A stretch of 62,407 nucleotides of DNA, filler included, from Dugesia japonica (taxonomy: Eukaryota): the NCBI GenBank assembly GCA_001938525.1. It is 5 parts of 5 records of this genome, joined end to end, with 100 filler letters (N's around TTAATTAATTAA, not from the genome) between each part and the next. Parts side by side here need not be neighbours in the genome. Positions count along the whole stretch, not along the records: positions 1 to 9,426 come from MQRL01498610.1; positions 9,527 to 28,228 come from MQRL01620663.1; positions 28,329 to 41,042 come from MQRL01572044.1; positions 41,143 to 53,268 come from MQRL01641472.1; positions 53,369 to 62,407 come from MQRL01629698.1. One strand, given 5' to 3'. A program made the position numbers and the translations under genes. The notes beneath the pieces are model-generated. The model was not told the DNA's origin. It saw only the letters and a list, made by a program, of their open reading frames with translations, and searched no databases. This document shows positions 1,796-55,691 of this stretch, piece after piece. Each line of letters begins with the position of its first letter. Within the stretch, counting starts at the first letter, position 1.

Positions 1796-2528
1796 AAGTG
1801 GTGCCTAAAAGATCGATCGCGATCTACCAGTAGATCACGGACCAGTTCTGAGTAGATCATTAGCCTATTAAAATATTTTTTTGATGCATGAAAATACATT
1901 TTCTAACTAGAGCATTGATGAACGAAACAAAATACAGAGCATCAAATTTGCAAAGTTATTTTGAAAAATCAAAAATTTAAAAATTTTTTTATTTGATATT
2001 CATTTAATTTTTCGTATGCTTACATTTTATGTTTTTTATGTGAAGAAATATAAATTATATATGTAAATTATTTTATAATTACCATTATTGTGAGAATAAT
2101 TGTTGGACTTAACCATTGATCGCATTTAAGATTTCATTAAAATAAAGAAAAAGCTTCGATCAAAATAAAATGTATTTGTAAAAAAGTTCAAATTTTCGAC
2201 AATAGTCTTCTTCAGGAACATGTTGGCTTCTTGATATATTGAATGCAATGGATCTTTGTTAAAAATAAATAAATAAATAAAAATTAAAATTTATAATTAA
2301 ATAAACCAATAAAATGTTGATAAAATCTAAAGAATTGAGTAACAAAGATCTATTGCATTAAATATATCAAGAANNNNNNNNNNNNNNNNNNNNNNNNNNN
2401 NNNNNNNNNNNNNNNNNNNNNNNNNNNNNNNNNNNNNNNNNNNNNNNNNNNNNCTTTATTTTAATGAAATGTAAATTATTATTTTAATTGATAAGTTGAT
2501 CGTGCGAAAAATTTAGTGGACAGTCCTG
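1796..2528. mobile_element. Degenerate hAT-like non-autonomous element containing the hammerhead repeat pair
   Basis: AGTGGTGCC...GATCGATCGCGATCTACCAGTAGATC left end and GATCGTGCG...GGACAGTCCTG right end resemble hAT MITE termini; no clean TSD. Confidence 0.45.
2186..2219 (-). ncRNA. Minimal type I hammerhead ribozyme motif (Penelope-associated type)
   Basis: Minus strand GUUC-CUGAAGA-A-GAC(UAUU)GUC-GAA-AAUU-U-GAAC: intact core, 4-bp stem I, 3-bp stem II, palindromic stem III. Confidence 0.8.
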
Positions 2529-4157
2529 TTTTATACAATCGTTATTATGTTAAAATATCTATCTTCTATTACATAATTAACTTTGTTTTCAATGCATTAT
2601 TTCCACCGTAGGATTAATTGGCTTTTTATGTTTCTTTTCAGTATTTTACTTCTAAACGATTGACGATATTATTACATAAAAAGTCATGAATAAATTTTTC
2701 GTTAATTTCATCCAGGGAAGAACTTCGTAACTTATTTTCCATGTTCATATGTCGATACATGTTTCCTCAATTTGTTTCGTATTCTTCGTTTATTGTGAAT
2801 CGTGATTACTTCAGATTTCTTAAATACTTTGTTGTAATCAATTAATTTTTATTTATTCTACTTTCTGATTTGTGTCGTCACATGATGTATCATGTTATTG
2901 GTTGACTTTGTATTCAATGTCGAATGATATTGAACTATTTTAATTTAATGACTTTACAATTATTTATTTTGAATTGTAAATAAAAATATGAAATATTGAA
3001 AAGAGCTAAAAGTGATTTTAAATTTTTTTATTTTCAATCAATTTTTAAATTAAAGTTTATTGTACTGCTCCAGTATGATCATATAATGGATTTATAGTTA
3101 ATAAACATAATTTTCTAAATGATATTTTAAAATTGTTTGTCATTTCAAAGACGAAAAATAATTTTGCTAAATTTTATTTAGAAAAAAGCAATCGTTTTAA
3201 AAATTTACAAATAATGAAATTGAAAATATTTTTAATATAATTAAAAGAGAAATTAGAATGTAAAAAATTCAAAATAGATCTAATTTTATTCATTTGGTAT
3301 CACAAATAAATAATTTATTACATTAAAGCGTTATACACAAAAAAAACTGAAACTAATCATTAGTAATTATTTGGAATTAAAATATGGCGACTAAAACATG
3401 TATTTATAATGATACTTTTATGTATAACATACCATTTATAAATGACTTAGTAATTTCTTGTTTAAAATGAAAATAAGAATGACTAATTTTTTTTTCTTAC
3501 AAAAATATTATCAAATCCGCTATTGGATAATATTACTATTACAAAAAATAGAGAATCGTAACTTTTTGCTTCTCTTTAAACGTATTTTCATTTTAGAAAA
3601 TATATAAATTAATATTGAAAAAATTTGATTCTTAAAATTAAATTAAAAAAAATTAAATTCCATTACTTTACTGTTTCTATCTCGAATTATTGGCATAAAA
3701 TTAAACACTTAATAATTTAATTATCTAAAAAATAGATAAATGAAATTCATTGTGTGTATGTAATGGCATGTTAGTAAAGCAATATTTTTCTCATCGTATT
3801 CACAGAAGGAAATCCAGCCTATAATTAGTGGGAAGATAGTTACAGTCTGTATATTTTGCAAAATTTCTACATTTTGTTTGATTTTACTTAATGACAAAAT
3901 CTGCTGATATACTTTAAGAGGTGATTATCACAATTTCTTTACACACTAGCATTAATCAGCATGCATTCAAGGTGATGATATATGCCCTTTCTATCTAGAT
4001 ATGCATCTCACCTCAGGCCAACTTTATATTGTGATAATAATTGTAATGCAATGCTGCAGATCGCAATCTAGTTGTCGTCAACTTCTATTGGTTTATGGAA
4101 ATGTTGACTTTTAAATGAATCTTCTTTTTTGTAATCGGATCATTAATACCCTAATTC

Positions 4158-4608
4158 ATGTCATTTCGATGTTTCAAATCCAAATCACCAATATATGGAA
4201 CAGTAAAAAATGATAAAAATAAATTAAAATCTCCTCTTGCTTGGGAAGAAAATGTATTGAAATCTCCTACGACCAATTTAGACGATGTAGTTATAAATAA
4301 TGATTCCTATCAACTACATCGAAGTGTGTCGGATTTAAGTTTATTTCGAATAATGGATAGTAATGGTAAGCAATCATACTCATCGATCGAGAACAAATCG
4401 AAAATGTTGACTGAATCTTTAGGAGTTTCATCGGATTTATCTCAACAATCATGGGGTTTTAATAGCCGAATAGAAGACATGAGTAATTGCAGCATGGAAC
4501 AACTAATAGATAATTGGTCGAAAACTAGTAGTTATTCTACCAATATTTCCGACTCACAAAAATTTATTTCTAATCTTATGAGTAAAAAAGCCTTTGATGC
4601 AGTTAAAG
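4158..4608 (+). CDS. Probable first coding exon of an unidentified Ser-rich protein
   Basis: About 150 open codons in very AT-rich DNA, ATG start, no TE motifs, candidate donor AAG|GTATTA at 4608/4609. Confidence 0.55.
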
Positions 4609-6477
4609 GTATTAATTTATGTTTGCTAATTTCTATGATTTGGAATTTTTAAAAAAAATCATTCATTCTAAATTAATGTTTAATATATTCCTTTAATATT
4701 TACCTATGTTAAATTATGAAATAATTAAATAAATTTTTGATAATTAGTTGTTAAGGAAATGATTTTTTCTATCTAGATATGGATATTTTAAAAAAAAAAC
4801 AAGATTTAAATACGATTCTTTAGAATCAATTGTACCTAAATTGAATTTATCTTTCTTTTGTTTCAATTTTTGAAAAAATAATTGCATTTGTAAAATCTCA
4901 TTAGACAACCATATAATCTATTTTAGTAGATGATAATTTTTGTTTAAATAATTTAGTATTATACGAAAGGATGAAATACCGGCATATTTAACAATTTACC
5001 TGAACCGGTGTTAACCAAAAGAAATCAATTAGTTAACTATTTTTTGATTTCAAATATAAATTTCTTTACTATTAGTTTCTACTAAATGATTTTGCAAAAT
5101 TTGTAAATTATTTCAAATTTTCATTTTATTTTTAAAGAATGAAATAATTAATCCATAGAAAATCAATCGTCTGTATTTATGAGTCATCTATTATTTATCT
5201 GAAATTTATTTTTTTTTGTTTTAACTGAATTTTTCAAATACAAAAAATTTTAAATAATTCTAATTATTAAAATAAAATCAGTGGAAAACCGTTACATTTG
5301 ATGTTAAATTTTATTTCTTTTATATGTATTTCAACTAAATTTCTAAAAAGAATGATTAATAATTCTATTTAGAAATTGTATTTTGATTGAAAATATATCG
5401 ATTCTAGTTAAATCGATATTTGAATTTATTTCGAATTTTGATTAAATAAATTTATTTTTGAAATTATTAGTTTAGAAAATTATCATAATAATGATAGACT
5501 CATTGTGATTGTTTGATTTAATAGAATTTTGGTATTTAATATTTTCGAATTATATTAATTTAAATAAAAATGAAAAACAACTGATTAAAAGTTTTAAATT
5601 GACAAAGTTAAAGAAAGGAATATTTTTAATATAACAATAGAAGTATAATTAAGTTTTGATTGACTTTTCCAATGTTTTGAGATTTTTCAATAGTTTTTTT
5701 TATTGATTTTTTGTAGTAAAGCAATAGTTTTTTTTTAAATGAAAGTTTATACATTCCAGCTAAAGTCTAAAAGAAAAATGGATTTTTCTAACTTTCCAAC
5801 TTTCTGTGATTTTATTTCTATCAAAATCAATTTCTAAGAATTTGTAAATATTTTTAATCGAACAATTTTCAATGATAAATTTATACTATTATTTAAATAT
5901 CGTTTAAAATTTATTTTATTAATTATTTTGATACAGTTTATTTTTTTATCAGATATGAATCCTTCTACCAAAATGTAACCTAATCTTATTATAATATAAA
6001 TATTTAACATTTATTATTGTAAATCTACAAATTATGGGAAAATAAAATATCTAAAATTTATTTTTAATTGAAAACCAAATGAATATTACATAATATTCGG
6101 AATAACTAAAATTTACTTGAGCCATTAAAATTATTTTACAAAATTTTTGTCGTTTGAGTGATTATAGAAATAATTTGATTTAACTGTGAGTCATTTAATG
6201 ATAAACATCAAGCAGGAGTCATACATAATAAGCGTCAAAAGTAATTAACTTTAATAAATTAATAAAATATAATTTATGGCTCGAACGTAAATAGAAAGAA
6301 TATTAAATTTCCTAAATAAAAATAAATTTAACTTTTTAATTCTATTTAAAAATACTAACATTAATTTGATTTTTTGGGTGTTGAAATGAGGCGATTTATA
6401 GTAATTATTGAATAATATTTGTTTTTTTACGGTAATTTGTAAAATAATATTGGTTTTAAATTGAACTAAATATTTTT

Positions 6478-6690
6478 GAATTCATTTAAAATAAAAGCTT
6501 CGATCAAAAAAATTTTTTTTGTTTTTGGAGATTGACTTTTTGAATCAATTCCTGACGAAGGCAAAGTCGAAATATCGAATCAATCTCAAAAAACAAAAAA
6601 AAAATTTATGATCGAAGCTTTTATTTTAAATGAATTCTGAGAAACGATCAATGGTTACGTCCAACAATTATTCTCGCAATAATTGCAATT
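6478..6690 (+). repeat. Hammerhead-bearing pLTR-like repeat (family A) with inverted partial duplication
   Basis: Perfect 29-bp inverted arms 6478-6506 / 6609-6637 extending imperfectly inward; 3' tail GATCAATGGTTACGTCCAACAATTATTCTCGCAATAAT shared with copies near 2083, 10630, 53565 and 54790. Confidence 0.85.
6548..6580 (+). ncRNA. Minimal hammerhead ribozyme motif
   Basis: AUUC-CUGACGA-A-GGC(AAA)GUC-GAA-AUAU-C-GAAU; predicted cleavage after C6576. Confidence 0.85.
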
Positions 6691-6958
6691 GTAAAACTAC
6701 TTTTATCAATTTTTTTTTTCATTAAAAAATTTCATATTACACTTGAAAATTCTGGAAATTCTTTCATATTTAATGTATTTCAAAAATATTTTACAATTAT
6801 ATTGATTTTATAATCACTATTTTTTCGCACTTATTTTAAAATATTGTATATTAATTATTTCACAGCGTCGGTTTTCAATTATTTTACCCGGACAAAGTTC
6901 ATCTCTCATTCAAATTCATACATTTTCTATTTCAATTTGATGAAACATTCATGTATAG

Positions 6959-9737: not shown

Positions 9738-10629
9738 GATACTTAATTTCTGTCAGTAGTATATTTTTCAAAATTTAAATTTTGTAATAATTAGATTTTT
9801 TTGAAAAACAAATTATTGTGATATCTATACTGATATTAAATAAATAAATAAAATAAAAAAATAATTCTTGGTACCAAATTTTGATTTCAATGAAATTTTT
9901 AACTGTTTTTATTGATTAAATAGTTTATTTTAATATATAATAATATAATAATATTTATTATATATTATATTAGTTTATTTATACTTAAAAAATTTATGAG
10001 AATATACATATTTAATTAACTCAATAAAATTTTTTTCAATTTCTTTTTCATGTGGAAAATATTTATTTTATAATACATAAAATCTTAAGTTTTTATTAAT
10101 AAATAAAATTATATTAATGGAAATTAGGTGGTGAAAATAATTAATGTAAACACATTCTTCAAATTTTTAAATGCTGTCAACAGATTATTGGTTACAATAT
10201 TTTTTCTAACATGAATTTATTTCTAATTATCATGAAATTAATATTCGGTATTTTCAAAAAAAATCAAATGTTAATTTTAATAACTGTTTCACATCAAAGA
10301 TGTTTTAATTATTAAATTTATTACATTTAGTTTTTTTTAGTAATTTAATGCGAGATTAATTAAATTTATTAAATTATTTTCAATTGATAAATTATAATGA
10401 TATATTAATTCGAAAAATTTATTATACAATCATCCTTGCAGCAAAGTTCTTCAATAAATTCAAACATTAATAAATAATACATAAATACAATTGTTTGGGA
10501 ATTGTTCTTTTCTTCAAGAAGCTGAAATATTATTAATAATTTATTAAATTCGATTGTGTTTTTAGTTGTTTCTGCTATCAAACAAACACTGATTATTTTC
10601 TTCCAAAACTAATTCTAATTTTACAATTA

Positions 10630-10790
10630 GAATAATTGAGAAAATAATTTTTAGACTTAACCATTGATCGTATTTGAAATTTCATTAAATTAAAAGATTC
10701 CATCAAAATTCTGTTTTTTAAATATTTTTTTTTATAATTTTTGGTTGTTAGTATTTCGAATTTTCAACTTGTTTTCTTCATCGGGATTTA
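10630..10790 (-). repeat. Family A pLTR-like repeat with degenerate hammerhead
   Basis: Minus strand CCGAUGA-A...GAA-AAUU-C-GAAAUAC followed by the family tail (plus strand GACTTAACCATTGATCGTATTTG). Confidence 0.7.
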
Positions 10791-10979
10791 ACTTTTTGAT
10801 TTATTTAAGATTTACTATAGTATTAGAAAAATTTGGGGATTAATTTATTTTATTGAATTTTAGTTGGTTAATTTATTTAATTATTAAAAATTACTTTGAT
10901 TTTGGATTTATCTTCTTTAATTAGTAATTCGTCATGTTTCTTTCTGTGAAGTGTGAAAATGTAACATGTTCCTAGTGTT

Positions 10980-11760
10980 TTCCATTTTTTGTTTAAAAAT
11001 CTGTTAACTGATGAAACTGTTATTTGAGAAGAGACACAAATTAATAAGACCTCTATTATGATCCCTTGAATATATGTATATTCTCTGTATCTTTCAAAGA
11101 AGTCACGTACAGTATCAATGACATTTTCAGGACCTCCAATTGGAATTGATCCATACAGATTTTTTTATATCTAATGAACCAAATTCCCCATCACTCTTCC
11201 AGACATAATTTTTAATTCGTTCGATAAACTCCTATCTTCCATTTCGATGAATAAATTGAGGAATTATTGGATATTTCATTTTCTGTATTTTCTAATAATT
11301 GTAATTGACATTTACGGCTGTATATGGAAGCTTTAATCCTTGTAATGTTTGACAAGTCAGAAACTCTTGAATTTGCTTGTCGGTGAATGCATATCACAGT
11401 TGTACCAGATATTTTATTAAGATAATCAGAATTCGAATTTATTTTGATCTTGACTATATCTTCAGTTTTTGATTTCTCAGTTTGATTCCAAAGTTTTATT
11501 TATTTATTAAGAGAACATATTTCNTTTTATTTGCTAACATTTTCTTGATTTTCTTCATTTAGAGGAAAAGGTAGTGGTTTATTTTTAGCAGATTATTAAG
11601 CTCACTATCCAGCCTTTTACGACAAAAATTCATCCCTTAAAACTTTGTCGTTTAGACAAATCATCAGATTAGCAACATTTAAGGGCCTTCTAGAGTTTCT
11701 TTTAATTCTCAAACAAAAATGTATTAATTCTGTTGTGAATAATTGATTTAGGCTGTTAAG
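10980..11760 (-). mobile_element. Penelope-like element reverse transcriptase relic
   Basis: Minus-strand translation EFIERIKNYVWKSDGEFGSLDIK/NLYGSIP (1-nt frameshift near 11160) matches the PLE RT motif A pattern S(L/F)D(V/I)xxL(Y/F)xxIP; boundaries approximate. Confidence 0.7.
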
Positions 11761-12599
11761 AACTTTGATTCTGAACCAAAGTTTTTAGTAGGTCAACATT
11801 ATACAACTTTTGTATGTTAATAGCATCCCTAATATATATATATATATGGATTCACTTAAGACATTAACCATACTAAACATTTGTATATATAAAGAAGATT
11901 TGTTTAAATTAAATGTTTTAAGTGAATTCAGATGAAGTGAAATTAATATAACGCTTTTTACTAATACCAATCTTAGTTTTTAGAATTAAAATAGTACATT
12001 TTTTAAAACTAAATTTAGTTTTAGAAACCAAAGTTTTCTATACTTTAAGACAATGTTATGCAACCTTTTTTCGTTAGACAGAAATGAAGGAAAATATGCA
12101 TTAAATCTCTCAAATGAAATAATTCTTTTCTAATACATTTATTTTTCTTTTACAATTTTTTAATTTTATATGCGGCACCCAAACAATGTTACGTGACACA
12201 CATAAAGTGTCATAACACCACATCTACTGGACACTGCTGCAGTAAAGCAAAAGTTTACCAGTTTATGAAATTTCTCTTCCATTAGTATATTAGAAATTAA
12301 AACGAATATTTTTAAATAAAATTTATATTGATTTTCAGAACATATTTAAAGATTGCTTCTTAAACTAAAATCCAAAAACCAATAAAAGATAAAGATGAAA
12401 CTTAAAAAAGACATGGGCAAAAATTTTAATTTGAAAATTATACGAAAATAAAATACAATAAATTCATTTAAACAGACAAACGAAGAAATTGTAAAAGCGA
12501 CAGTTATTTGCAATACAAATAATTCGATGGCTAAAAATGACGTTTAAAAATATATTTACACACACACACACATATATATATATGCATTAAAAAATGAAT

Positions 12600-13170
12600 A
12601 ACTTTAAAATGTTCATCAACGGAAGTAGATCGATAAAATTCCCATGATCTCTTGCCGGAATTATAGAAATATGCTCAGTAGTTTTCAAGAAATACTCCTG
12701 ATCAATGGGAAAGTGTAATATATTAAAGAATCTGGATTTAACAATCATCTTCGAAGAACCAAAGCTCATTCTACAACCAATACTCCAGCAAGGATTGTTG
12801 TCCCAAAAATAAAAGGACGTAATATATCTTTGGTTGCAACTATAAATACACAAGGAATACTATTTAATCAAATAATTCCACAATCTAGTGAAAATTCCAA
12901 TATTTTTTGTGAATTTTTACAGTGAATTTTTAAGAAATTACAAGAACAAGGTCCTAAAGAAGTAGGGGTAATTTGTGATAATGCACAAAACAGAAACAAT
13001 TAAAATTCTTGCTAACAACACATCACATGGGTTAATATTTTCCAATGATGAACCCAATTGAAGTGGTATTCTGAAAAGTGGAGTTATATGCTCGGAATAT
13101 TCTCGCAGATCCCATAAGAAATGAACACTTAAAAGACGTGACCAAATTATCACTTGTAACATTTAATGAA
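12600..13170 (+). mobile_element. IS630/Tc1-like (DDE_3) transposase relic
   Basis: VIY-xESGFNNHLRRT...VPKIKGRNISLVATI...NSNIFCEFL...VICDNA...PMMNPIEVVF with stops and frameshifts. Confidence 0.8.
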
Positions 13171-31494: not shown

Positions 31495-31505
31495 GTAATT
31501 TTTAT

Positions 31506-31540
<35 letters not shown>

Positions 31541-32029: not shown

Positions 32030-32340
32030 TGAAGAAGAAACCTTGAAATGAAATGGGTGCCTTATCTATTGACTGAAATGAATAAAATGCAACGATTATC
32101 CATCTGAAATTCGTTGCTTATTCAACACGACAAGGACAATTTTCTTAATCGGATTGTCACAGGTGATGAGTAATAGGTCCTGAGCGACAATCCTAAACGA
32201 AAATAGCTATGACTTTCACCCGGCCAAATTCCGAAATCAACTCTGAAACCGAACAATCACAGAAAAAAGATATTGCCTAGTGTTTGGTTTAGTGTACATA
32301 GAATGATTTACTTTGAACCACTGGCACTTGGCAAAAGAAA
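32030..32340 (+). mobile_element. mariner transposase fragment
   Basis: KWVPYLLTE...FLNRIVTGDE...KKILPSVWF. Confidence 0.85.
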
Positions 32341-33271
32341 TATAGTAGACTTCTTATTTAACTTTAAAGAATAATCCAAGCTATCTATTTTAAATTCACA
32401 CTCAAATTATTCTGATTTACCTCGCATACGTATTATTCAAACACTAACATTTAATAAATTTAATCAGTGTATATTTACTAAAATTAAACATACTGAAATT
32501 TAATTTTAGTATATGTTAACTCTTCCTCACAATTATTATTATCATTATTATTATTATTTATTGATTTATTTATTATTGATTTTTATTTTTATACTTCTCA
32601 ATTTTAATTATGAAGGCAAAATTTGAATAGCTTACTCTACTTCTACTACTACATATAGTTTTGTCAAAGGAAAAGTATTTTAAATTTAATGCACTTATTT
32701 TTAATATGGCTTGTTAGGGGTAGTAGCAATTAAAAAAAGAACTTTTCTCAGTATTGATTAATTAATTTTAAATTGTCTCTTACTTAACATTAACATTAAG
32801 CCATCAGAATTAATTATTAATTTTTTTAAGTGATCGTGTTTTTACTATTTGGACCAAACATTCCTAATCCGAGCATAGTGGATTTAAGTAACTTTTAAAT
32901 GTAGCGGTATACAATGGTTGTATTTGCCGCTTTTAAATATCATTTAAGTAGATGATTTTTAACTGCCGTAAATGCAATATTTCACATCAATATATCAATT
33001 ATCGTCATATTATAACAAATGACTAAAATTATTCTTAGGTCACCTTTCATGTATCTTAACTTATTATTAACATCAATCTTTTCATATAATCCTCTTAACT
33101 AGCAAGGATTGTATCGATGCGAATTAGAAATCTTAAATTGTCGAATTNNNNNNNNNNNNNNNNNNNNNNNNNNNNNNNNNNNNNNNNNNNNNNNNNNNNN
33201 NNNNNNNNNNNNNNNNNNNNNNNNNNNNNAATTCATGATAGAATTTTAATCTACTCGCGTTATTATCAATA

Positions 33272-36200
33272 TAGTTTATCATTTATAAAATTATATTAAT
33301 ATTTAAATTTGTTAATATTAAATGATATTGCTTGTTTAAATAATTCATTATTAATAAATAGTTTTTGTTTTAATAAATACTTATGGAAAGTTCAAGTCTT
33401 TTAANNNNNNNNNNNNNNNNNNNNNNNNNNNNNNNNNNNNNNNNNNNNNNNNNNAAAATAAGCGTACTGACGAGAAAAGAAAAGATGATCGGCAAAAAAG
33501 TTTTGTAAAGCTGTCATCTTCAACACAGGAATCGCTTTTACCAATACCAAGTTTTTTTTGAGGGTTCATCTGAAGCGGCTGAAGAATGGATTCAAACGAC
33601 CAAAGAATTTGCTGCGTTTAATCAAATGTAGTTATCATTCCCGTTTCATATATTAATGAGACGAGATGTGAAAGAATTATGGGTGGAAAAATGTAAAGAA
33701 GATGTAATTTGGATGAACAAGGTCTGCGAAAAATGGTTTTGTGAATCATTTGTGATTTCAGAGACACTAGTGGATAAAATAACTTTTTTGTCGAAGATCA
33801 AGCTAAACCCAACTGAAAAATATCGGAATTTTGAGTTAAGAGTAAGAAAAATAGTAAATGAAGTTTTGCTAGTAAAAAAACTCTAGATGAAATTGCAACA
33901 ATATTTGTAATTAATGGTAATTAATTTGTAAAGCGAAAAATTGAAAGAATCTTTTGTTCTTCAACCAGAACTTACTGATATTCAAACATGAGAATCAGCT
34001 AACAATTTGGATAAATTGAAACCGGCATATTCTGTTAATGTGGTAAAAAATCAGCTATGCAGATACAGTGAAGAAAGATGAGTATCAGTCAAAGTTTTCA
34101 AACGAATGAATACTCAAAACGATCCAAGTACAATTAGTCGACCAATTGTTTTGAAAGAGAATCAGTATTTTACAAATGAAATTCAGACCTTAGGACGGGC
34201 CCAAAACAATAGTTTCCCTCGATACTCGATGAAGTGTATAGCCAATAAGTTTTATTCTAAAGTCAAAGGAAAGAATCCTCCGCGCGAAGACATTTTTACA
34301 CCGGGAGCATGTTTCTGCTGTGGAATTACAAGATATAGAAGAATGAATTATCTATTAAAAGACAAATGTTTAATATGTGGAAAAGAAGGTCATAATTTTC
34401 GAGATTGCCCATTAATTCGAATAAGAAATTCTACATTTCCAAAGATATTATGTATTGCAGAAGAAGATGATATGTTATCTTACAGTGGTGAACAAATTGC
34501 GTTTATACACGATGTTTCTTTAGACGATGATAATAAAAAAAACGACCAGCAACCCACTGCATCCATCTCCTCAGTGAGGTTACAATAACAGAGAAAATAC
34601 TTCAAGATGAAAAATTGATGTTCGATGATAAAATGTTTCAGAAGAGAGATGGAAGAGAATGGAGTTTAATGCGTTGCAATGGATATGACATTGAGATGTT
34701 ATGGGATTCAGGAGCAGCAATATCAGTCATGAGTGTGGATATCTGGAGAAGAATTGGATTACTTGATCTATCGTCGTCACAAATTGTTCTATCATGAGTG
34801 TTTTCTGAAAAAGGAGAAAAAGGTATCGGGAAAACTAAACTGAAATTACAATGGAATGGGAACCTAAGAGAGAAAGAAGTAGTAATAGTTAGAAATATTT
34901 GTCCAAAATTTATTGGAGGTATTGATATGATGAAACTCTTCGGAATGAAAATCACTGAAGTTAATTTTATTAACTCAAACGATGGAAATCTATTTACCNA
35001 TAATACAGAAAAAGTGAAAAATGGCTTTAACACTTCAAATAATGTCAGCCAAGAAGTAAGAGAAATGATAGAAACTTACAAAAATATATTTATGTCATCA
35101 GAATTTTATCGTGGATATACGAAACTGATGCAACATCATATTGAAACGACAGGACCTCCCGAGAAGACAGCCAATGTACTTGGAAAATAAAATAGATGAA
35201 TTGTTAGAAAATCTTAAAAAATCAAATATTATAAGAAGTTTCAGAAGTCCATNGAATTCCCCATTGATAATTGTACCAAAGAAAGATGAGACGATAAGAA
35301 TGTGTATTGATTTTAGAAAATTGAATTAAATTACAGAAAAGTATTCGTTTCCAGTTCCAGATATTTAACTATTATTAGATACGCCTGAAAGATCAGTCTT
35401 ATTTTCTTCTTTAGATTTAAACAAGCATATTATCAAATTGAACTAAGCGAAGAATCAAAACTAAAGACGGCTTTTAGTACAAAGATAGGTCAATTTTATT
35501 TCAATCAAATGCTCTTTGGATTATGTACTGCACCAGAAACATTTCAAAGCTTGATGTATAAAATATTTGAAAGAATGTTGTACAAAGAAGTATTAGTATA
35601 TCTAGATGATATTTTAATATATGGTAAAACTAAGGAGGATCACAAAAAACGAGTTGGTAAAGTTTTTCAGCTACTATCGATGCGGGTTTTAAAATAAATC
35701 CAAGTAAATGTGTGTTCAATTCCAAGAAGCTGAAATTTTTAGGACCTACAATTAGCGCTAAAGATGTAGAGACAAATGATGAAACCATCAAAAGAATTCG
35801 AGAAGCCGTAACGCCAAAATGCGCCACGCAAATACGAGCGTTCTTAGAATTACTTGCAGCACCATTGTATGCATCGACGACAGGACAAGAAAAGAACATT
35901 GAATGGACATTGAATGAGGATAGTTTTCAATCTTTGAAGATAAAATTGTGTAGTGTTCCGATTTTGACTTTCCCAAATAATAGGGACGAAAAGATATTAG
36001 ATACTGATGCTAGTTTTGGAGCAATTGGAGGGGTTTTGAGTCAAATAAAGAATAATGGATTGGAACAGGTCATAGCATATGATTCTCGAATTTTAAACAA
36101 TCACGAAAAAGGATATTGCGTTACTCTCAAGGAATTGTTAGCTCTACATGAGTTTATGATGTATTTTAAATACTATTTGTATGGCAAGAAATTTAGAGCA

Positions 36201-37487
36201 AGAACGGATCATAAAGTATTGACTTTTATGAGGAAGACTTGTAAGCCCATTAGTTCTCAGTTTCAATCATGGATAATAAATCTAGCAGAATATAATTTTG
36301 AACTAGAATTCCGAAAAGGAGCAGTTCATGGAAATGCTGATGGACTTTCAAGGATAGGATAGAGTCTTTGTTCGCAATGTCAGACTATACATCAAGATGC
36401 CAAAGGGGAACGATCTCGAGTTAAAAGAATCAATACTTTAGACTAAACAAACTTTGATAGAAGCCATATTAAAGAATTACACTGGGCGAACAAAGAAATT
36501 TCTTATTCCAAGAACAGAATTTTAACCACTAGAACAGGTTATCATGGATATCGCTTACTTTCCAGGAGTGAAAACCAAAAATAAATATGTTCTCGTCATG
36601 GTTGGCAAGGTATAGTAAGTTGGCGTCTTTCGTAGCGTTAAGTAAACAGGATAAAACTTCGGTAGTTGAGGCAATAAAGGAAAACTGGATAAATAGTTTT
36701 GGTAAGTATTTGAAGGAAAGTTAATGCTGTCATTCGCAGTGAAGTTTGAGATTCAACAAGAATTTTCGTCCCCATATCAACATCAATCAAATGATTTAGC
36801 AGAAAGAAATATTAGAACACTTCGAGATATGATGGTAACAACGATAAAGAACGGCTGCACGGAATCAGGTTGGGGCAAATTACTTCCACGAATTCAGTTT
36901 GTAATAAATGCAACACAACAAAATTTTGACTGGTCCATCTCCTTTTGAAATTATCTTTGTAAGAAGGATAGTCTAACACGAATTACCACAAGAAGGAAAT
37001 CCGAAACACGAAGAAATGAAAAATCTGGCAGATGAAAATTTACAGAAAGCAGCTCAAAACTTATGCAAATACGAATGTGAAAAACGAACGCCCAGACATT
37101 TTGAAGAAGGGGAAAAAGTAATAGTGAAAGTAGAACCACACAAATTAAAGAAAAAAGGTTTCAGGTATGAGGGTCCTTACAAAATTATTAAATGTATAAA
37201 CCGACATCAGGTGCTTATAGATTTTTCAGGACAGCTTAAACCAAGAAGACTTGATTGGCTAAAAAAATTGAAAATCAAAATTAAAATGAGAGAGAGCAGT
37301 TATATATCATTTATAAAATGATATTAAGATTTAANNNNNNNNNNNNNNNNNNNNNNNNNNNNNNNNNNNNNNNNNNNNNNNNNNNNNNNNNNNNNNNNNN
37401 NNNNNNNNNNNNNNNNNNNNNNNNNNNNNNNNNNNNNNNNNNNNNNNNNNNNNNNNNNNNNNNNNNNNNNNNNNNNNNNNNNNNNNN
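33272..37487 (+). mobile_element. Near full-length decayed Ty3/gypsy element inside the SLC6 intron
   Basis: gag with two Zn knuckles (34106-34588), protease LWDSGAAISV, RT SPLIIVPKKD...MCIDFRKLN...VYLDDILI, RNaseH DTDASFGAIG...TDHK...NADGLSR, integrase SSPYQHQSN...YEGPYKI; purine tract near 37290; LTR-start similarity ATCATTTATAAAAT at about 33277 and 37305 (LTRs largely N). Confidence 0.93.
34537..34585 (+). promoter_or_regulatory. -1 programmed ribosomal frameshift signal (gag-pol)
   Basis: A AAA AAC in the gag frame, 7-nt spacer, hairpin AACC-CACTG...CAGTG-A-GGTT; the -1 frame is open into the protease ORF at 34615. Confidence 0.75.
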
Positions 37488-39899: not shown

Positions 39900-40380
39900 T
39901 TTGAATAGAAAATTTACATTAAGTTGTGTGAAAAATAAAATTAATACTACAGAAGCACTTAAAATGATATAGAATGCATTCGGTGATCAATCACCGCCGA
40001 GAAAAACTGTATTCCGGTGGTATAAGTTCGTTAATCAATAGAATATGCATATTGTTTTGGTCGTCGACCAACATCAATAATTAAAGAAAGTTTCACAANN
40101 NNNNNNNNNNNNNNNNNNNNNNNNNNTCATTTGAATGTGAGAAAGCATCTTGGCATGTTAACTGAAGATGTTAGCATATCAGCCAGTTCAGTAGACGTAA
40201 TTCTAATTGATGTTTTAGGCTTGAAGCGTTTGACAGCAAAATTCATTCCAAAATCATTTAATCTTTTCAATAATCATTTGTGAGTTTTTCGTCAAACATT
40301 CAACAAATATTGCTTTTCAAGCACCTTATTCTGCAAATTTGTTGCCATGCGATTTTTTCCTGTCCATTCTATTAAATAAT
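39900..40380 (+). mobile_element. mariner relic
   Basis: CVKNKINTTEALKMI*NAFGDQS...VFRWYK and APYSANLLPCDFFL. Confidence 0.75.
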
Positions 40381-40559
40381 AGAGAAAACATTTAACACAT
40401 TGGACGCCGTGTGCAACAAATGTGTCTCACATTTATAAATATAGGCATAGTATTGCGTCTAACGTTTTGAAATTTTGATTTTTGATGAACAGTTTTATTT
40501 TACAATCATCACAGTTTAGAACTCGTGTAACATTTTCACTATAGTATAATGTATTAATA

Positions 40560-41042
40560 AATTAGTACTTTATTTTTGGGCATTTCCAAATATTTTCAAT
40601 TGTGAATCTAAAGCCAGATCAGGAAAATAAATTAAGGGAGTCGTAGAAATTAATCCAAATTTATCCTCATTTCGAAACACCCAAACAGAAGATTGACGTT
40701 TATTCTGAGATTTGTATGAGTAAATCCAAGATTCGTCACCACTCACAATGCTGTAGATATTCTTTGAGCTTCCGTTGTAAAACCTGGTCAAAGTTTTTCG
40801 GCACCAATTGACACAGCTATTTTCTGTTCATTGGTTAGCAGATGTAGGATCCAACAGAAACTAATTTTCTTACACCCAATTCTTCATGCAGGATCTTTTG
40901 CAATGAGGTCTTTGAAATTCCCAAGTAAGACTCCATCTCACGATATGTCGCATGTCAATCTTCCTTGATTAGCTGACGCAGAGCATAAATATTTTATTGG
41001 ATGGCTACTGTTCTTGGTGCATCATTTCTTCGGTCATGTGTG
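40560..41042 (-). mobile_element. mariner relic
   Basis: WILHLLTNEQK...NIYSIVSGDESWIYSY...RQSSVWVF...YFPDLA. Confidence 0.85.
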
Positions 41043-41142: not shown

Positions 41143-41499
41143 TCATTATTTTTTATATTCATCGTATACATTCTGGTTCCTTTCGTCAAGATTATAACTA
41201 TTTATATTTTATTTATTATTTCCTGTATTGATTTTAGTATTGTCTTTATCTGATCTTCCAATATTTTTCAATGATTTTTTCCAGCAGTGTATTATAGTTT
41301 TTGCACTTAGTTAAGATAGATGCAATATAAGATTTATTAATATTATATAATTAATATTGTTATTTATTTAAATATGGAATATATTTACATTTTAATTTTT
41401 ATTACAAAAAATTATTTTAAACTATAAATAAAGAAAAATATAAAAAGAAAGGGTTTAAGATGTGTCATAAAAAAATTACTCAAACATTATAAATTTTTT

Positions 41500-42140
41500 G
41501 GCAGATTTGACTGGCGAAAAGTAAAATACATGCACCAGTTCAGAAGCTGGTGTACTACTTGGTGTGTTGCAATCCTTTTCACTCTTGTGTTTCCTCAGTT
41601 TCCTGGAAATCACTTTTTTTTAGAAATTAACGAAACACAGATTTACCTTCAAATTAAAGTGATAAATATACAACATTGCGATATAAAACTTAAGGATTTA
41701 AAGACATTTTTATTGGAAAATAGGAATAAGTTAGTGGACAATTCAATAATTTATGCCAAGGAAATTCGTGCTGATCTAGGAATTGTCATTGATCGTCAGC
41801 GTCGGTGCAAAAAAAGAAAAAGAATGATTTAAGAAGTATCACTGATTACTGAATTACTATATAAAACTGAATTGAGAAGTGAAATGTTTTTTTCATTAGA
41901 TAGGGTGATTCAAGAAATAAATTCGAGATTTCAACAGCTTTATGTTCTTGCTGAAAAATATGGATTTCTTGTTCCGTCTAAACTTTTTAACGAAGATTAC
42001 AATTGTGAGATACATGAGATACAATTTAATTTTAATAAATTGTGTATATTAAATTAATTGTAAGGAAGGTAAGATTTTGTCTTGTATAAGTGGCGGCAAT
42101 TTTAAGGATCACCCCAGCACATACCCTAGCCATGACACAG
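41500..42140 (+). mobile_element. hAT (Tip100/ZMYM1-like) transposase C-terminal relic
   Basis: LQIKVINI...LKTFLLENR...AKEI...RRCKKRKR...FFSLDRVIQEINSRFQQL...YGFL. Confidence 0.7.
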
Positions 42141-43906: not shown

Positions 43907-46583
43907 TGTATTTATAAGGGAATAATTTCAGCCAATAGAAATCAAAATAAATTATTTTTATTGGTGACTAATTTTTATTTGTAATTGTTTTATTATAAAT
44001 GTTTTAGTTTTAATTGGAAAATACAAAATGTATGTAATTTAATTATCGTTAAAAGATGTACCTAACATGGTGGCAGATGTAAATACCGATTCTATAAATT
44101 TGGTTATTACCAAATGTGTTCTAGAGAGGAGATTATATCGATAAATTCATAAAACGTTGTGAATTGTATTTTGATGCTAAAGTTGAAATAACAAGATAGT
44201 TTAATCTCTTGTTNGTTAGATGCTGATTTTTTGGAAGAAAATGCAAAAGAAATGAAAACGGTTGAAGGATTTCCGGCTTGTTTACGTTTGACATTTGAGA
44301 AAATAAAGATTTTATCGAAAATTTGCAAAGTTTGATTAACTACAGGCGTGGAAATGAAGAGATTCAGGTTTATTCTAAAAATTTAAAAGATTTAGTAAAA
44401 AGATTATTTAAAAATAAAGATTTTTTTGAGGAAAATTGATAAAAAAAACGATGCTGACATATTGTTCAGATAACAAAAAAGTTGAAGAAGAAGTGACTTT
44501 GTGAAAACGACAAAATATAAAAGCAATAAAAGAAACAATAACGTTATTAGATTGAGTAAAGAAAACAGAGATCAAGTTGATGCAGTTAGAAGTTTCGCAA
44601 GAGTTACAAGTCAAAATTATTAGAAACATGTAAATCATTCAGTGAGTAGAATTGTAGATCAACGGAAAGAAAAACGAAATATTAAGTGTTGGTTATGCCA
44701 AATTATTTGTCATACTAAAACATATTATCAGAGAAAATTAGTAGTAGAGTGTTGAACTTGTTATATGTCGAGTCTATTCATATAGAAAACCAACAAAGCG
44801 CTTTAGTTTGGGAAAGGTTGGCCAAATTAGAAGATATGAGGTGTATTCAATGTGGTAATGGTAGACATAGTGAAGAAGAGTGCTGCACAAATTTAAAAAT
44901 GAAAAGAACAAATGATATGTAGGACGCACATATCTGATAAAACACAAAATAACGTAAAGCCTTACAGGCAACCAATGAACTTAGAGGCTAAAATTGAAGA
45001 AGCTATCCAGGACCTTTTATTATCCGAAAATGCAACTCCCCGTAGACGACACTACTGATTTGAGTTTGAAAAACAGAAACGAAGGACATAAGAATATATT
45101 TGATTTTTAGAAAATTGAATGCAGTAACGAAAAGATAAGCTTTTTCTATGCCTAACATTAATAACATGCCAGACAAGTTAGATTGAGAAAATTATTTCAG
45201 TTCAATATATTTGGAAAGTGCGTGCTATTAGGGAGAACTCGAAGACGAATTTCGAGAAAAAACAGCGTTTTCAACAAAGCATGGACAACATTGTTTTAAT
45301 AGAAAGCCATTTGAGATTGCAGCGGCAGTGGGAACATTTCAGAAGATGATGATAAAAGTGGTAGGCGGAAATAATGGAGCCATGGTATATCTTAATGACA
45401 CTCTGATATTTACGAACAATCAAAATTAGCAATATGAAGTAATTAACAGAGTTTTGACTGAAATAATGAAGGCCGGTTTATGAATTAATTCAGAAAATTG
45501 TCAGTTTCTTCTAAGCAAAATCAAATTTCTTGGGCACATAATTAGGAGAGCTAGTGTAAAAATTGATCCGTCTAAAATAGAAGCAATAAAAACATTTGGC
45601 AAACCTAACTTTGTGAAAAAGATGCTAAGTTTCTTTGGAATTTGAAATTACTACAGGAAGTTTATAGAAAACTACGCAAGAAAATCAAGGATCTTAGAAC
45701 AGTTTTGTCGCGGATCACACAGCAAGACGTTAGAATGGGCAGATGAATTAAACGATACTTTTGGGAGTCTGAAGAAAGCTCTAATAACAGCGCTAGTATT
45801 GTGTTTTGCAGACATAAACAAAGAATTTATATTAAATACAGATGCCAGTTTCGATAGAATTGGATCAGTATTGTGATAAAGAAATAAAAAAAAGAAGAGA
45901 AGGGGTTGTTGACTATGGATNGCACTTGTGATTTATTATGAAATGGATTACTGCATCACACGAAAATTATTTGCTGTGTACTATTTCTATATGCATTTCA
46001 AAAATTACTTATACAGTAGACGATTTACTATTAGAACATATCATAAAGCTCTAACGTAATAACGACGAAGAATCCAATTACATCACAATTCCAGACATGG
46101 ATTAGAGTCGACTGAAATCGTATTTGGAAAGAAAACTAGCAGAGAAAAGTCGTACAAGTCAGAAGTTTCAAAAAGATTTAAAGAAAACATTTCAAAAGTG
46201 ACTACCAATAGAAAATTCAAAGTTAGAAGTGATTTTCTCATCAAAGTAGAAACAATAAATAAAAGCTAATACAGATTAAATGTCCTTGTCGAATAATTGA
46301 GAAAATTCAGGAAAGACGGTATGCGGCATAAGAAGAAAATGGAAAGCGATTAGAGAGAAATGTGGAAAACTTAGAAAAGTTTCTTAAGAATTTAAGGGAA
46401 TATGAGAGGTATAAGGGAATAATTTCAACCAATAGAAATTAAGATAAATTATTCTTATTTGTGATTAATTTCTATTTGTAATTGTTTTACTACAAATGGT
46501 ATCGTTTTAATTTGAAATAAAAATTTGTGAAATTATTTTTTGTGATTTTCAAAATCAATTGCCGTTAGAAGATGTACTTAACA
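43907..46583 (+). mobile_element. Internally deleted Ty3/gypsy element with both LTRs
   Basis: 5' LTR about 43907-44067, PBS TGGTGGCAG at 44068, gag knuckles, RT (PYRQPMNLEAKIEE...MVYLNDTLI), RNaseH, integrase tail, 3' LTR about 46401-46583; same family as 20660-24846. Confidence 0.9.
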
Positions 46584-48220: not shown

Positions 48221-48270
48221 TTCTTGTATCCGAAGATGACAGTTATGCTTTCGAAACATGTAATGCAGAA
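48221..48270 (+). ncRNA. Degenerate hammerhead motif (third family)
   Basis: UGUAU-CCGAAGA-U-GACAG(UUAUG)CUUUC-GAA-ACAUGU-A-AUGCA; U4-to-C change and one stem II mismatch; 6-nt palindromic stem III. Confidence 0.6.
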
Positions 48271-50859: not shown

Positions 50860-52629
50860 CAGTGTAACCTCCTTAAACAGAACCCGGTTAAACAGAATTT
50901 TTCGCTTAAACATTACAAAATTTGGTCCCGTTTAATTGATTTTACTATGCTTGGTGTTATATCTGTTTTGTTTAAGCGAATTTGTTTAAACAGAACAATT
51001 ATTTATAATTTATTTAATTTTTCAAATTTTATTTTGCGATTTGTAAATTTAATAATTTTTGTATTTTTATTAATTTTATTTATTAATGTAGTAAAAATTA
51101 TAACAGCCACAATGTCAACAAAAAAGAAACAACTTTTAACTCTGAAAGAAAAATACGACATTCTATGTCAAATTGATACTAGAGTCAAACAAGCCAATTT
51201 AGCACGAAAGCATGAAGTCTATCCTTCTGTTATTTCTGCTTTGAAAAGCAACCNNGAATAACCGAAAATTGGAGATCAAGAATTTTAATTGTAACTTAAG
51301 ATGAATTGAACGTTCTAGAAAGCGTCACTCAATCACGTTTGGTGTTATCTCTGGAGAAGCTATGGAAGTGAATCAGTTAGTTGTTGAACGTTAGTTAATT
51401 GATCAGTGGTCTAAAATAAGGATGGGATATGAAGATAAGAATATATTTAATGGTGATGAGACGGGATTCTTTTTCAAAATGCCGTCAAATAAAACTATGA
51501 AATTTAAAGATATTTGTACTGGTAATAAAGTATCAAAAGAAAGATTAACAATTTTTCTTTGTGCTAGCATAACCAGTGAAAACCTCCAATGATTATAGGA
51601 AAATATTTAAATCCGTGGTTCTTTAAAAATAAAAACGTATAGAATTTTATTTACACCGCAAAAAATGCATAGATGACATCTTAAATTTTTAAAAAGGAGT
51701 TTATGAATTTTGATACTAAGCTGAGAAATGATAACAGAAAAATTTTGTTGCTCATTTATAATTACTCAGCACATCCGGATATAAATCATATTTTAACGAG
51801 CATTAAAATTGTATTTTTACCGTCTAATTCAACAAGCGTATTGCAGCCCATNGATGCGGAAATTATGAAGAATTTCAAAATGAATTATCGTAAGAGTTTG
51901 GCTATACAGTTAGTTAACAGTATTGATATGAACCAAGAATATAAAATTAATATTTTTGTTGGAATACAGATGATATCGGACTCTTGGTAAAGAGTTTCTA
52001 TTGAAAAAACTTCCAATTGCTTTCATAACGCAATTTTAAATCGGTAATAAAATTTTTCCGAAATTTCAAAGAATGCCGAATCGTTGGTTGAGAGAAAGAT
52101 ATACAATGAATAGAGTGTTATAGCTGAATTTTTTGAATCAAAACATGGTCTTGATAACTATTTCACAATTAATAATGATTTGGGAGTAATTGGACTCGAA
52201 TAAGAAACAAAACTAAAACATAATTCATCTGATATCTCTGAATTGGAAACGTATGAAATGAAGAATAAAATTAAAATTAGCGATGTTTTGCAAGTTATAA
52301 GAATTGTTAAGGAGCACTGTTTCAAGGAAAATAGCAAAGACTACGTCTATATCAATTTACTGAATATTGAGAATGATCTTAGAGACTAATTTCTTATGAA
52401 AAAGATAATACAGAGGAAAGTATTTGAATATTTTATTAAAAAATAAAATTATCCAGCCTTTATGCCTTTGAATTTTAAGTTAAAGTTGATTTTATGGTTT
52501 TTAATCTATGCTGTATTATGTAATACTTTTTTAATTTAGAATTCATTATTTTGCTTATATCGTTTAAACAGAACTTTCGCTTAAAAAATTTTCAGTCCCG
52601 ACTTTGTTCTGTTTAAGCAGGTGACACTG
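50860..52629 (+). mobile_element. Tigger/pogo transposon, decayed but with both TIRs
   Basis: TIRs CAGTGTAACCTCCTTAAACAGAAC / GTTCTGTTTAAGCAGGTGACACTG + TA; HTH_psq-like start MSTKKKQLLTLKEKYDIL, DDE_1 motifs NIFNGDETGFFF and FLPSNSTSVLQPxD. Confidence 0.93.
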
Positions 52630-53368: not shown

Positions 53369-53436
<68 letters not shown>

Positions 53437-54247
53437 TTATTAGTAAAATTATTAAACATAATTTATTTAAAATTTGTATGACAATTATACATTTAAAGAG
53501 TAGTCTGTTACACGCTTTAATGTAAAATTTTCGAATGAAAAAAATTTTATTTGTGACATAATTACAATTATTGCGAGAATAATTGTTGGAAGCCTTTTTT
53601 TATTTTAATGAAATCATTCATTGTGACCAATAGAATATTGCTTTACGTTAAAATTAAATATTTATTGAAATGATAATAAGATAAATTACGTAAAAATATA
53701 TTAAAATCATATATTATATCAAAAAGTATTTATATATAATGTCAGATTAAAACATATTAAGTGTTATCTCATCACAACCAGAATTATCTGTTTTGAGTTT
53801 CTCCTTGTTGCTTTGACTTTCATTATTTATATTTTTATCATTCGTGTGATATTTTTTCTATTTGTCAAATATTACTTTTGTAAATAGATTTTCCTTTATA
53901 ATTATTGATATTTTCATTGATTTGAAACAATAATTTGCAATTTCTAAACAATTTCATTCTTTTATTTGTTTTAATGCTTCATCTCTCACTTTTTGAATAA
54001 AGATCTTTCTTAGGTAAAAATAAATTTTATTTTCTAAGTAATTTTAAAATGAGAAATTGATAAGATAAATGTTTTAATTATTTTGTTAATTCAAACCAAT
54101 TAAATATTCCATACTGAGCCAAACAACAAGAAAATCAACTTCAATTTCTTAAATATATTTTCTAATTTCTATTCTAAAAAGAATTATTTAATTTTTACTT
54201 TAAAAAAAATATTTCAATATGTAAATATTTAAAATTTAAAATATTTA

Positions 54248-54679
54248 CAGTGGAACCTATCAAAAGTGATCACATCCACGTGGTGACCACCCTATTTTGG
54301 TGACCACCTCTATAACATTGAACTCTTCCAAAAGTATAATGAAAATCTTAAAGTTTAGCCTCAATATTCTTAAAAATAATTAATAAAAAGTGACAACTGC
54401 TAAAATATAATTTCTGTTAAATACAACAAATTTTAATTTAGAAATAGAACATTTATTTTGTTTAAATAAATTAGAGTTGGTGGAAATTTTAAAAAGTGAA
54501 TTATGGGAAAATTGAATGAAACACAGAAAAAAGAAATCACATTATTAAGTATTTATTCAAATAAACATTTTAATATTCATTTTGTGTTCTGATTTATTAA
54601 TAAATTTACTGTTTTTACCATAAATTGTAAAATGGTGACTACCTCCCAAAAAATGACCACTTCTTGAATAAAGTCACTG
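54248..54679. mobile_element. Tigger/pogo-type MITE
   Basis: TA-CAGTGGAACCT...GTCACTG-TA ends with repeated GGTGACCACC subterminal motifs. Confidence 0.75.
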
Positions 54680-54695
54680 TATCATTAAAAGTCAA

Positions 54696-54726
54696 TTCCT
54701 GACGAAGACAAAGTCGAAAATTCGAA
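54696..54726 (+). ncRNA. Minimal hammerhead ribozyme motif (family A)
   Basis: UUC-CUGACGA-A-GAC(AAA)GUC-GAA-AAUU-C-GAA, followed by the family A tail to about 54830. Confidence 0.85.
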
Positions 54727-55658
54727 ATACTATCAAAAACGAAAAAATAATTTTATCGAAGATTTTATTTTAATGAAACCTCAAATACGATCAATGGTTA
54801 ATTCCAACAATTATTCTCACAATAATTCTTGTTATTGTAAAATTAAAATATATAAATATTAATTTTGATCATGCTTGTTAAGTGAGTCTAAGATGCTCAC
54901 TGTTGAATTTAAAAGATTATTTGAATCCATGAAATTTTAGTAAAATTTAAAAATAAAGAATAAAATCTAGNTTTTTCAAAAAAATTAATTATGTCAAATA
55001 ATTCGCATTTCAACCGAATTTTCATAATTTTCAAAATTTTAATTTTATTTCATAATGTAAAATAGTGCAAACAATTTAAAATTTATTCCTAATTTTTTAA
55101 CAATACTTATTTTAAAATTTCAAAAAATCTAGTAATAAAATTTTTAATATAATAAACAAAAAAAGTATTTTAATATTTAAAATTTAATATGAAAAAAACA
55201 AAAAGTTTAACTTTAAATATAATTTTATCATATTTTTAATAATTTAATTTAAATTTTTTTCAAATTAATTTAGATAAATATTTCTTAAAGACAAACTTTA
55301 GTTGAAATGTCAAAAAATTTAACTCTATCTTGATCCATTACTACAATTCTATTATTTCTAATTTCATTAATTTGTCTTAATTTAATAATTAAAAACTACA
55401 AAAGTTCATATTTAATAAATAATTAATGTAATAAATAAATTCCTTAGAACAACCTTATGGAATACATTTTGAGTGATTTTAGATGTATGATTTTGAGTTT
55501 CTTTTTAGAAATTTTAATTTTAAAATTTTCATTTCAAAATTAATTTTCTAAAAACCGATTTCAAATTTAATGCTATAATTATTTAACAATGAAAATGAAT
55601 TTTAATCAGATTAATGTAAATTGTATTTCTATTTATAACAAGAATNANTTGAGCAATA

Positions 55659-55691
55659 GTTCCTGNAGAAGGCTTAGCCGAAATATTGAAT
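55659..55691 (+). ncRNA. Minimal hammerhead ribozyme motif (family B)
   Basis: GUUC-CUGnAGA-A-GGC(UUA)GCC-GAA-AUAU-U-GAAU. Confidence 0.72.

Follow-up and report, generated by a model that had tools for sequence, protein, structure and literature searches.

The question raised by this locus is how short hammerhead-like motifs came to lie scattered over independent pieces of planarian DNA, and whether they still cut. The window, meaning the whole stretch analysed, comprises 62,407 nucleotides (nt) of Dugesia japonica (assembly GCA_001938525.1) in five separate pieces, with joints confirmed as N44-12 nt-N44 spacers and a non-N length of 60.6 kb. An initial annotation had described minimal hammerhead ribozymes here and had ascribed their architecture to the pseudo long terminal repeats (pLTRs) of Penelope-like elements (PLEs) and to retrozymes. 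In our reading, which we hold very probable, four motifs of one repeat (family A) lie in the pLTR of an endonuclease-bearing PLE; the copies are likely 5'-truncated and mostly non-cutting, and the two remaining types (family B and motif C) likely belong to two other PLE families.

Minimal hammerhead motifs in the window

Five clean and two degenerate motifs had been claimed, and all seven were verified in position and strand on four of the five pieces:

2186..2219, minus: family A motif found by descriptor; stem I of 4 bp, stem II of 3 bp, palindrome AAUU, H17 = U
6548..6580, plus: family A motif found by descriptor; AUAU, H17 = C, predicted cut at 6576/6577
10755..10788, minus: degenerate family A hammerhead (U4C, broken stems), ~90 nt behind the stop of an open reading frame (ORF), found by homology
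54687..54850, plus: family A copy with motif (54696-54726; AAUU, H17 = C, predicted cut at 54723/54724), 5' untranslated region (UTR) and ORF start near 54785; descriptor, alignment and reads
14542..14743, plus: family B repeat with intact motif (14623-14653; AUAU, H17 = U); descriptor and self-blastn
55587..55691, plus: family B copy with motif 55659-55691 (core N), 73% identical to 14542-14653; descriptor and self-blastn
48221..48270, plus: motif C, a degenerate minimal hammerhead (U4C, one stem II mismatch, ACAUGU, H17 = A)

Cut sites at 6576/6577 and 54723/54724 had been placed correctly, as read from the sequence. A strict descriptor, made up of a stem I of 3 bp, CUGANGA, 0-2 extra nt, a stem II of at least 3 bp, GAAA, a palindrome, H and stem I', gave four matches in the window (2187-2218 minus, 6549-6579, 14623-14653 and 54696-54726); 136 local dinucleotide shuffles gave none. 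When one core mismatch was permitted, 55660 (core N) became the fifth match, against an average of 0.2 and a highest count of 1 among 60 shuffles. Six window matches, 48221 included, and none in 186 shuffles were obtained with a relaxed descriptor, which was composed after the fact so as to admit 48221. In this control, which the initial annotation had suggested as a possible refutation, the motif was not as frequent in dinucleotide-shuffled sequence. With U4C and both stems, I and II, broken, the 10755 motif fitted no descriptor; it was identified by homology to the 54696 copy (blastn E 1.7e-25 over 188 columns). Rfam, which had been suggested as a check, gave no match on the whole window at E values up to 5; two 141-nt stretches drew 59 and 4 weak matches, of which none was to a hammerhead family. 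A descriptor is therefore needed to detect these motifs. MicroRNA-like Rfam matches at 6500-6620 were rejected, being far below gathering scores and a product of an inverted repeat.

Both catalytic boxes (CUGANGA and GAAA) and helices I and II, in a structure open at helix I, were found in five motifs (one with an N in the core); the exceptions are 48221 and 10755, with the core and stem damage listed above. One nucleotide separating position 9 from position 10.1, together with a G10.1-C11.1 pair, occurs in six of the seven (10755 has G-U). A palindromic 15-16 region in place of helix III, followed by a position 17 other than G, is present in all seven (AAUU, AUAU or ACAUGU; U, C or A), and the AAUU/AUAU change falls within family A. 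Stem III thus stays palindromic while varying, as had been stated. The accompanying claim of stem covariation was examined by pair counts. Across six motifs the proposed pairs were kept in 90.7% of cells (slid controls, at most 42.6%), with changes on both sides at three pairs. For the cells paired and the covariation score, only 4 of 500 shuffles came as high, but the number of double-changed pairs by 190 of 500. These pair counts are not a probability, being taken from few, related rows that also yielded the structure. Density is 7 per 60.6 kb if the two degenerate motifs are counted, the earlier figure having been about one per 9 kb, and 5 per 60.6 kb (1 per 12 kb) if they are not. The scattered motifs are confirmed as genuine minimal hammerhead ribozyme sequences.

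The class itself is not new, as the initial annotation had also said; it has been in print since 2014 (Cervera and De la Pena 2014, PMC4209133). The minimal hammerheads (min-HHRs) described there carry the extra nucleotide, the G10.1-C11.1 pair and the palindrome and occur as single dispersed copies, with about 2,000 and 1,300 in S. mansoni, 4,000 in coelacanth and 9,000 in X. tropicalis, and with PLE-linked rows for one planarian and two nematodes. Single motifs were reported as inactive and dimers as weakly active. The present motifs resemble these metazoan PLE ribozymes in type I topology, CUGANGA, the single nucleotide between 9 and 10.1, G10.1-C11.1, the palindromic helix III and a nucleotide other than G at 17, and also in mostly single dispersed copies, several families per genome and copies in the thousands (PMC4209133). 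Unlike most min-HHRs, with stem II of 4-8 bp, stem II here has 3 bp, as does the C. briggsae row of Fig. S3 in PMC4209133; the 4-nt palindromes AAUU and AUAU are as in Drosophila variants of the same source. The local density seems above the genome counts given in PMC4209133, as a property of a single flagged window and not as a genome estimate.

Family A and the Penelope-like reading frame

Family A (motifs 2186, 6548, 10755 and 54696) shares a unit of about 160 bp (~150-165 nt) from the motif onward, with 81-86% identity over ~145 aligned nt; upstream of the motif, three of the four copies share at most ~12 nt. Its parts outside the motifs are the following:

2066..2185, minus: pLTR remainder of the 2186 copy, 5' UTR and first 20 ORF codons (2125-2066); tblastn to P0001 amino acids (aa) 1-20, 65%
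2228..2373, no strand: inverted-repeat (fold-back) stretch just upstream of the 2186 motif; self-blastn E 3e-9
6478..6545, minus: inverted partial copy without hammerhead, abutting the 6548 copy; self-blastn and folding
6581..6699, plus: 5' UTR and ORF codons 2-19 (6645-6698) of the 6548 copy; tblastn, 83% to P0001 aa 2-19
10592..10754, minus: 5' UTR, ORF start (10673-10620) and terminal fold-back (10592-10648) of the 10755 copy; blastn and weak tblastn
10877..11668, minus: decayed, internally deleted Penelope-like ORF with stop at 10879-10877; protein homology to P0001
26418..26465, minus: fragment without hammerhead; nhmmer E 0.003 and blastn
53557..53616, no strand: 3'-end fragment (53592-53557 minus) at a weak inverted junction; nhmmer E 9e-6, plus-strand piece E 0.09

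P0001 is an intact 843-aa Penelope-like protein, encoded by a single ORF with a reverse transcriptase (RT) plus, at the C-terminus, a GIY-YIG endonuclease. It was the single protein of 78 candidates matched by the minus-strand frame 11164-10880 (E 1e-17). Pieces of the relic match P0001 aa 76-236, 418-508 (RT motif A region) and 806-842 (GIY-YIG C-terminus), and the 10755 motif lies ~90 nt behind the stop of this deleted ORF. The relic was found only by a large protein search; Pfam gave no PLE domain on 22 window ORFs. The first ~20 codons of P0001 follow the motifs at 2186 (65%), 6548 (83%) and, weakly, 10755, and the same reading follows 54696. The element order is thus ORF end, ~90 nt, hammerhead, ~60 nt, first ~20 codons of the same ORF. 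Since this order runs from ORF end through hammerhead and 5' UTR to ORF start, family A is assigned to the pLTR of a PLE, and the position of its motifs there, in sense to the ORF, is shown directly by homology on both sides of the motif.

PLEs are described as showing 5' truncation, partial tandems and adjacent inverted copies (Craig et al. 2021, PMC8557442); all three, and also a tail running into the ORF start, are seen in the window. Three features agree with the inverted structures of that description (PMC8557442): the inverted copy 6478-6545, the fold-back at 2228-2373 and the one at 10592-10648. Together, the 6478-6545 and 6548 copies fold into a long hairpin (z -6.7) in which the 6548 motif is buried. 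As a side observation on this pair (6478-6637), the motif-less inverted copy can be read as a deletion between two TCAAT words or as a start within a few bases of the cut site.

By eye, P0001 matches the PNL2_SM row of Fig. S2 in PMC8557442 (short cysteine linker and CCHH). That row was placed in the Nematis clade from its order after the Nematis rows in the same figure (PMC8557442). P0001 also resembles the Hydra clade PLEs of section 11 of PMC8557442 in having DKT instead of DKG, a KWK word close to the RWK motif, a CxCX5C linker and a short element. Hydra clade PLEs are described as lacking CCHH (PMC8557442), whereas in P0001 the cysteines that lie between GIY and YIG are retained, as are two histidines further on. 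Membership in that clade was therefore rejected. The CCHH cysteine columns of P0001 are nearly invariant in an alignment of 24 relatives. The SM in PNL2_SM we take to stand for a planarian species. Hydra-clade marks (DKT, CxCX5C) stand alongside an intact CCHH in P0001 and likewise in P0002-P0006, P0014 and P0019; this protein group is a possible link between the Nematis and Hydra clades.

Related loci were collected with a 24-protein alignment, which gave 503 metagenome-contig stretches; the best 79 distinct loci of these were used (23-38% identity, partly redundant). A sense-strand motif was present in 26 of these 79, with 28 matches in sense, 3 in antisense and none in 20 shuffles, and many lay 40-450 nt behind an ORF end. 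The extra nucleotide is present in 24 of the 28; the palindrome, which the descriptor requires, is AUAU in four and ACAUGU, as in motif C, in five. Five loci (L008, L009, L040, L050 and L068) carry the U3-A8 core variant described in PMC4209133; in L008, the closest by identity (38%), it lies 161 nt behind the ORF.

At least three repeat families had been proposed. Only two are evident in the window: family A with four motifs and family B with two, 14623 and 55659, which share ~110 nt ending at the motif (73%). Motif C (48221) is single-copy in the window, and no tandem duplication beyond AT-rich noise was found around it. Family B includes a further stretch:

14314..14420, plus: partial direct repeat of family B without motif; 80% to 14643-14743, period 329

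An 8-nt start-like word of family A recurs at 14412, after this partial repeat, and lies within 250 nt upstream of both 14623 and 48221; in a post hoc count it was seen 8 times in the window where 1.8 were expected. On architecture, the partial tandem (B) and the word that they have in common with family A, family B and motif C were judged likely PLE members. Two sightings by eye, a word like GIY-YIG near 47260 and, ahead of 14623, a reading like a C-terminus, were not confirmed. One frame enters the family B motif with similar residues in both copies (14623-14629 and 55659-55667), and in the 14623 copy it terminates at the catalytic core's UGA. The family B ribozyme may thus overlap an ORF stop, a reading with no protein homology behind it.

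Repeat load, transcripts and neighbouring features

Four sequencing runs (two DNA runs from different studies and two RNA runs, one of them oligo-dT) were aligned to 54400-55640 at 80% likeness; family B was thereby sampled over 55576-55640 only. The two DNA runs gave 21,342 and 16,351 matching contigs, with a depth peak at about 54687-54850, the family A repeat. In DNA run X1 the motif bin had a summed depth of 631,000 and most of the downstream flank one of 13 to a few hundred; single-copy contigs had depths of 5.5-10. The upstream part of family B was also repeated (33,700 in X1). Summed contig depth is not a copy number; if overlapping contigs are assumed to count a site at most 31 times, several hundred to ~30,000 family A motifs would result, and a number in the thousands is a reasonable inference. 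The large genome-wide load suggested by the initial annotation is thus supported qualitatively, as high repetition. At 54720 and 54721, A>T and T>A occurred at equal depth in about a third of the total (93.2k/93.6k of ~272k; 55.2k/55.4k of ~152k). Read position by position, these changes from AAUU to AUAU fit two palindromic subfamilies.

RNA reads were sparse (63 in 1.59 billion letters and 175 in 1.75 billion), and some fell on an unrelated repeat at 55239-55279. Only 1 of 238 was 99% identical to the 54400-55640 locus; both directions occurred. Unlike flanking sequence was entered by 97-98% of the reads, which fits passenger copies inside host transcripts. Reads spanned the family A cut site with no pile-up of ends in these two runs, a weak negative given depth and library type. 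At 55239-55279 the reads of both runs share one variant and one identical continuation and are therefore likely to come from one other transcribed locus.

G+C content is 25% across the window, and its character is that of an AT-rich animal genome, with host exons and many decayed transposons. Host exons were recognized by Pfam scan of window ORFs:

28412-28750 and 31315-31554, plus: sodium:neurotransmitter symporter (SNF) exons
26056-26220, minus: thrombospondin type 1 domain (TSP1) exon

A 165-codon open frame without Pfam match at 4155-4649 (plus), between the 2186 and 6548 copies, is likely a host exon. Transposon remnants were named by eye. A BEL/Pao-like LTR retrotransposon has decayed ORF pieces at 15870-18550 (plus), and gypsy-like remnants lie at 20740-22150, 34080-37320 and 44030-46270 (plus) and at 24290-25870 and 61440-62310 (minus). 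Among the latter group, 20742-21986 and 44036-45782 are ~81-84% alike, and 24290-25870 contains an inverted pair. Tc1/mariner-like transposase remnants were noted at 12590-13170, 29100-30300, 31750-32370, 40035-40830, 56650-57000 and 59140-59710, the last with a DDE_3 Pfam match at 59441-59704. Pogo-like pieces occur at 50860-52000 and hAT-like pieces at 41430-42050.

Route of copying and competing explanations

Family A copies in the window continue across an intact cut site, with sequence retained to its left and right, and terminate 55-65 nt into the ORF. Linear RNA severed by the ribozyme would therefore not have served as their template, and from this we infer an uncut or re-ligated one. 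A precedent is PAc, the Poseidon element of Anolis carolinensis (Frangieh et al. 2024, PMC11167929), for which reverse transcription is reported to start inside the ORF start, ribozyme mutants to insert normally, and the ribozyme to cut only with the element protein, uncut RNA being the template. Family A resembles PAc in the hammerhead at the pLTR-ORF junction, in copies ending inside the ORF start and in the lack of RNA-seq ends at the cut site (PMC11167929). Stem II contains the ORF start of PAc, and priming takes place 111-118 nt into the ORF (PMC11167929). In family A, by comparison, the cut site precedes the ORF start by ~60 nt, and copies terminate after ~55-65 nt of ORF; the two belong to different clades.

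Internal priming as in PAc is the most likely route for family A by this analogy. The element protein would bind an uncut tandem transcript and nick AT-rich DNA, and reverse transcription would begin in the downstream repeat, ~55-65 nt into its ORF. Synthesis would usually halt soon past the ribozyme and leave ~160-bp solo repeats with an intact cleavage site; longer or rearranged products would give copies such as 10755 and 6548. The ribozyme would be selected in active master copies, where cutting may be weak or conditional and would involve either a dimer of two pLTR motifs joined by the 4-nt palindrome or help from the element protein. Dimer cleavage through the palindrome is a hypothesis, to which protein-assisted cleavage is the published rival (PMC11167929). 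Most dispersed copies are likely inert, given 15-19% divergence, core damage in two of seven and no same-family partner nearby.

Several points weigh against this reading. The window holds no intact element and no paired pLTRs, and the master element is represented solely by P0001. The 79 related loci are distant, 53 of them have no sense-strand motif (many contigs end near the ORF), and stem II is as short as 3 bp in only 1 of the 28 related motifs. Near B and C, two six-frame profile searches (one full-length, one for the endonuclease and built on 113 proteins) and a tblastn of 289 queries detected no homology to a PLE ORF; all of them returned family A pieces only. The priming step is taken from a Poseidon-clade lizard element (PMC11167929). 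In nearest-neighbour energies, the active dimer lay 7-16 kcal/mol above the best alternative for all four motifs tested, which weakens the dimer step; core contacts and Mg2+ are not part of the energy model.

Chance matches in AT-rich DNA are the simplest alternative, with short stems (3-4 bp) and the absence of a hammerhead family in Rfam in its favour. The shuffle results, the fixed position relative to a PLE ORF and the strand-biased occurrence in related loci leave it practically no probability, and chance origin was refuted by shuffles and homology. It is very improbable that some dispersed copies are active, host-relevant ribozymes, either cutting transcripts of the host in cis or using the palindrome to pair in trans. 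The core is kept in five motifs as far as it was read, and related copies are transcribed inside longer RNAs. However, the copies are diverged and in part damaged as described, monomers show no folding advantage over shuffles (z -1.9 to +1.2), 6548 is buried in its hairpin, published single min-HHRs gave no cleavage (PMC4209133), and RNA reads crossed the cut site with no pile-up of ends, within the limits stated above.

Two further explanations concern the mode of spread. Non-LTR retrozymes, tandem self-cleaving units of ~150-330 nt spreading via circular RNAs, share with our repeats a type I hammerhead, AT-rich non-coding units and a proposed pLTR origin (PMC7229834; bioRxiv 10.64898/2026.07.22.740005, a preprint which derives retrozymes from pLTRs). 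The 329-nt period of unit B (14314 versus 14643) is a further likeness, within the reported animal range. Retrozymes are described as tandem units each with a hammerhead, and none such lies in the window: no array has two motifs, Tandem Repeats Finder lists none, the upstream B copy has no motif, and 54696 and 55659, 964 nt apart, belong to different families. Where more than 6,000 type I motifs were reported in a coral, canonical type I retrozyme motifs were separated from minimal PLE-type ones (PMC7229834). Family A, moreover, is tied to an ORF. We regard a retrozyme source as quite unlikely. Of the original attribution, the pLTR part is borne out in family A, where protein homology flanks the motif and the published min-HHR consensus is matched; the retrozyme part is not supported for this family, which has no tandem arrays in the window, unit B being at most a partial tandem. 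Somewhat less doubtful, yet still unlikely, is that family A solo repeats are a self-propagating mini-element of ~160 nt, similar to a short interspersed nuclear element (SINE), with a transcript starting from a pLTR promoter just upstream of the ribozyme and copied in trans by the Penelope-like protein. Before 54687, 616 and 461 contigs of the two DNA runs pass into mutually unlike sequence; similarity is lost ~9 nt upstream of stem I with no common upstream sequence (agreement 0.46-0.47), as in the three window copies that share so little there, and the unit retains the predicted priming region. The same pattern would arise, however, if 5' truncations were clustered or an AT-rich 3' UTR drifted fast, a single reference copy having been aligned; copy 10755 is a longer insertion carrying ORF sequence, and the RNA reads are sparse, run in both directions and mostly leave the repeat.

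The internally primed, 5'-truncated pLTR copy is thus preferred for family A. A broader combined view would place this genome among the densest animal hammerhead loads (tens of thousands, ~1 per 10 kb), made up largely of a ~160-nt ribozyme-headed mini-element copied in trans by a PNL2-like Penelope protein, with the short ribozyme still selected and the AAUU and AUAU subfamilies pairing only with their own kind. We consider this conjunction improbable, and neither an unusually high load nor a self-propagating mini-element is established. No report of families A-C was found in the literature, a search outside which Repbase and Dfam lay, so that absence is not implied.

The analysis adds at least two uncatalogued-looking pLTR hammerhead families, one of them tied to an intact Penelope-like protein. 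The in vivo role of these ribozymes is left open in PMC4209133, PMC8557442 and PMC11167929, as far as these sources address it. With its high copy number, its two palindrome variants and a host organism for which RNA data sets are plentiful, such a family would make a convenient test case; if the dense load and the mini-element were true, it would be a tractable system for showing min-HHR cleavage in vivo.

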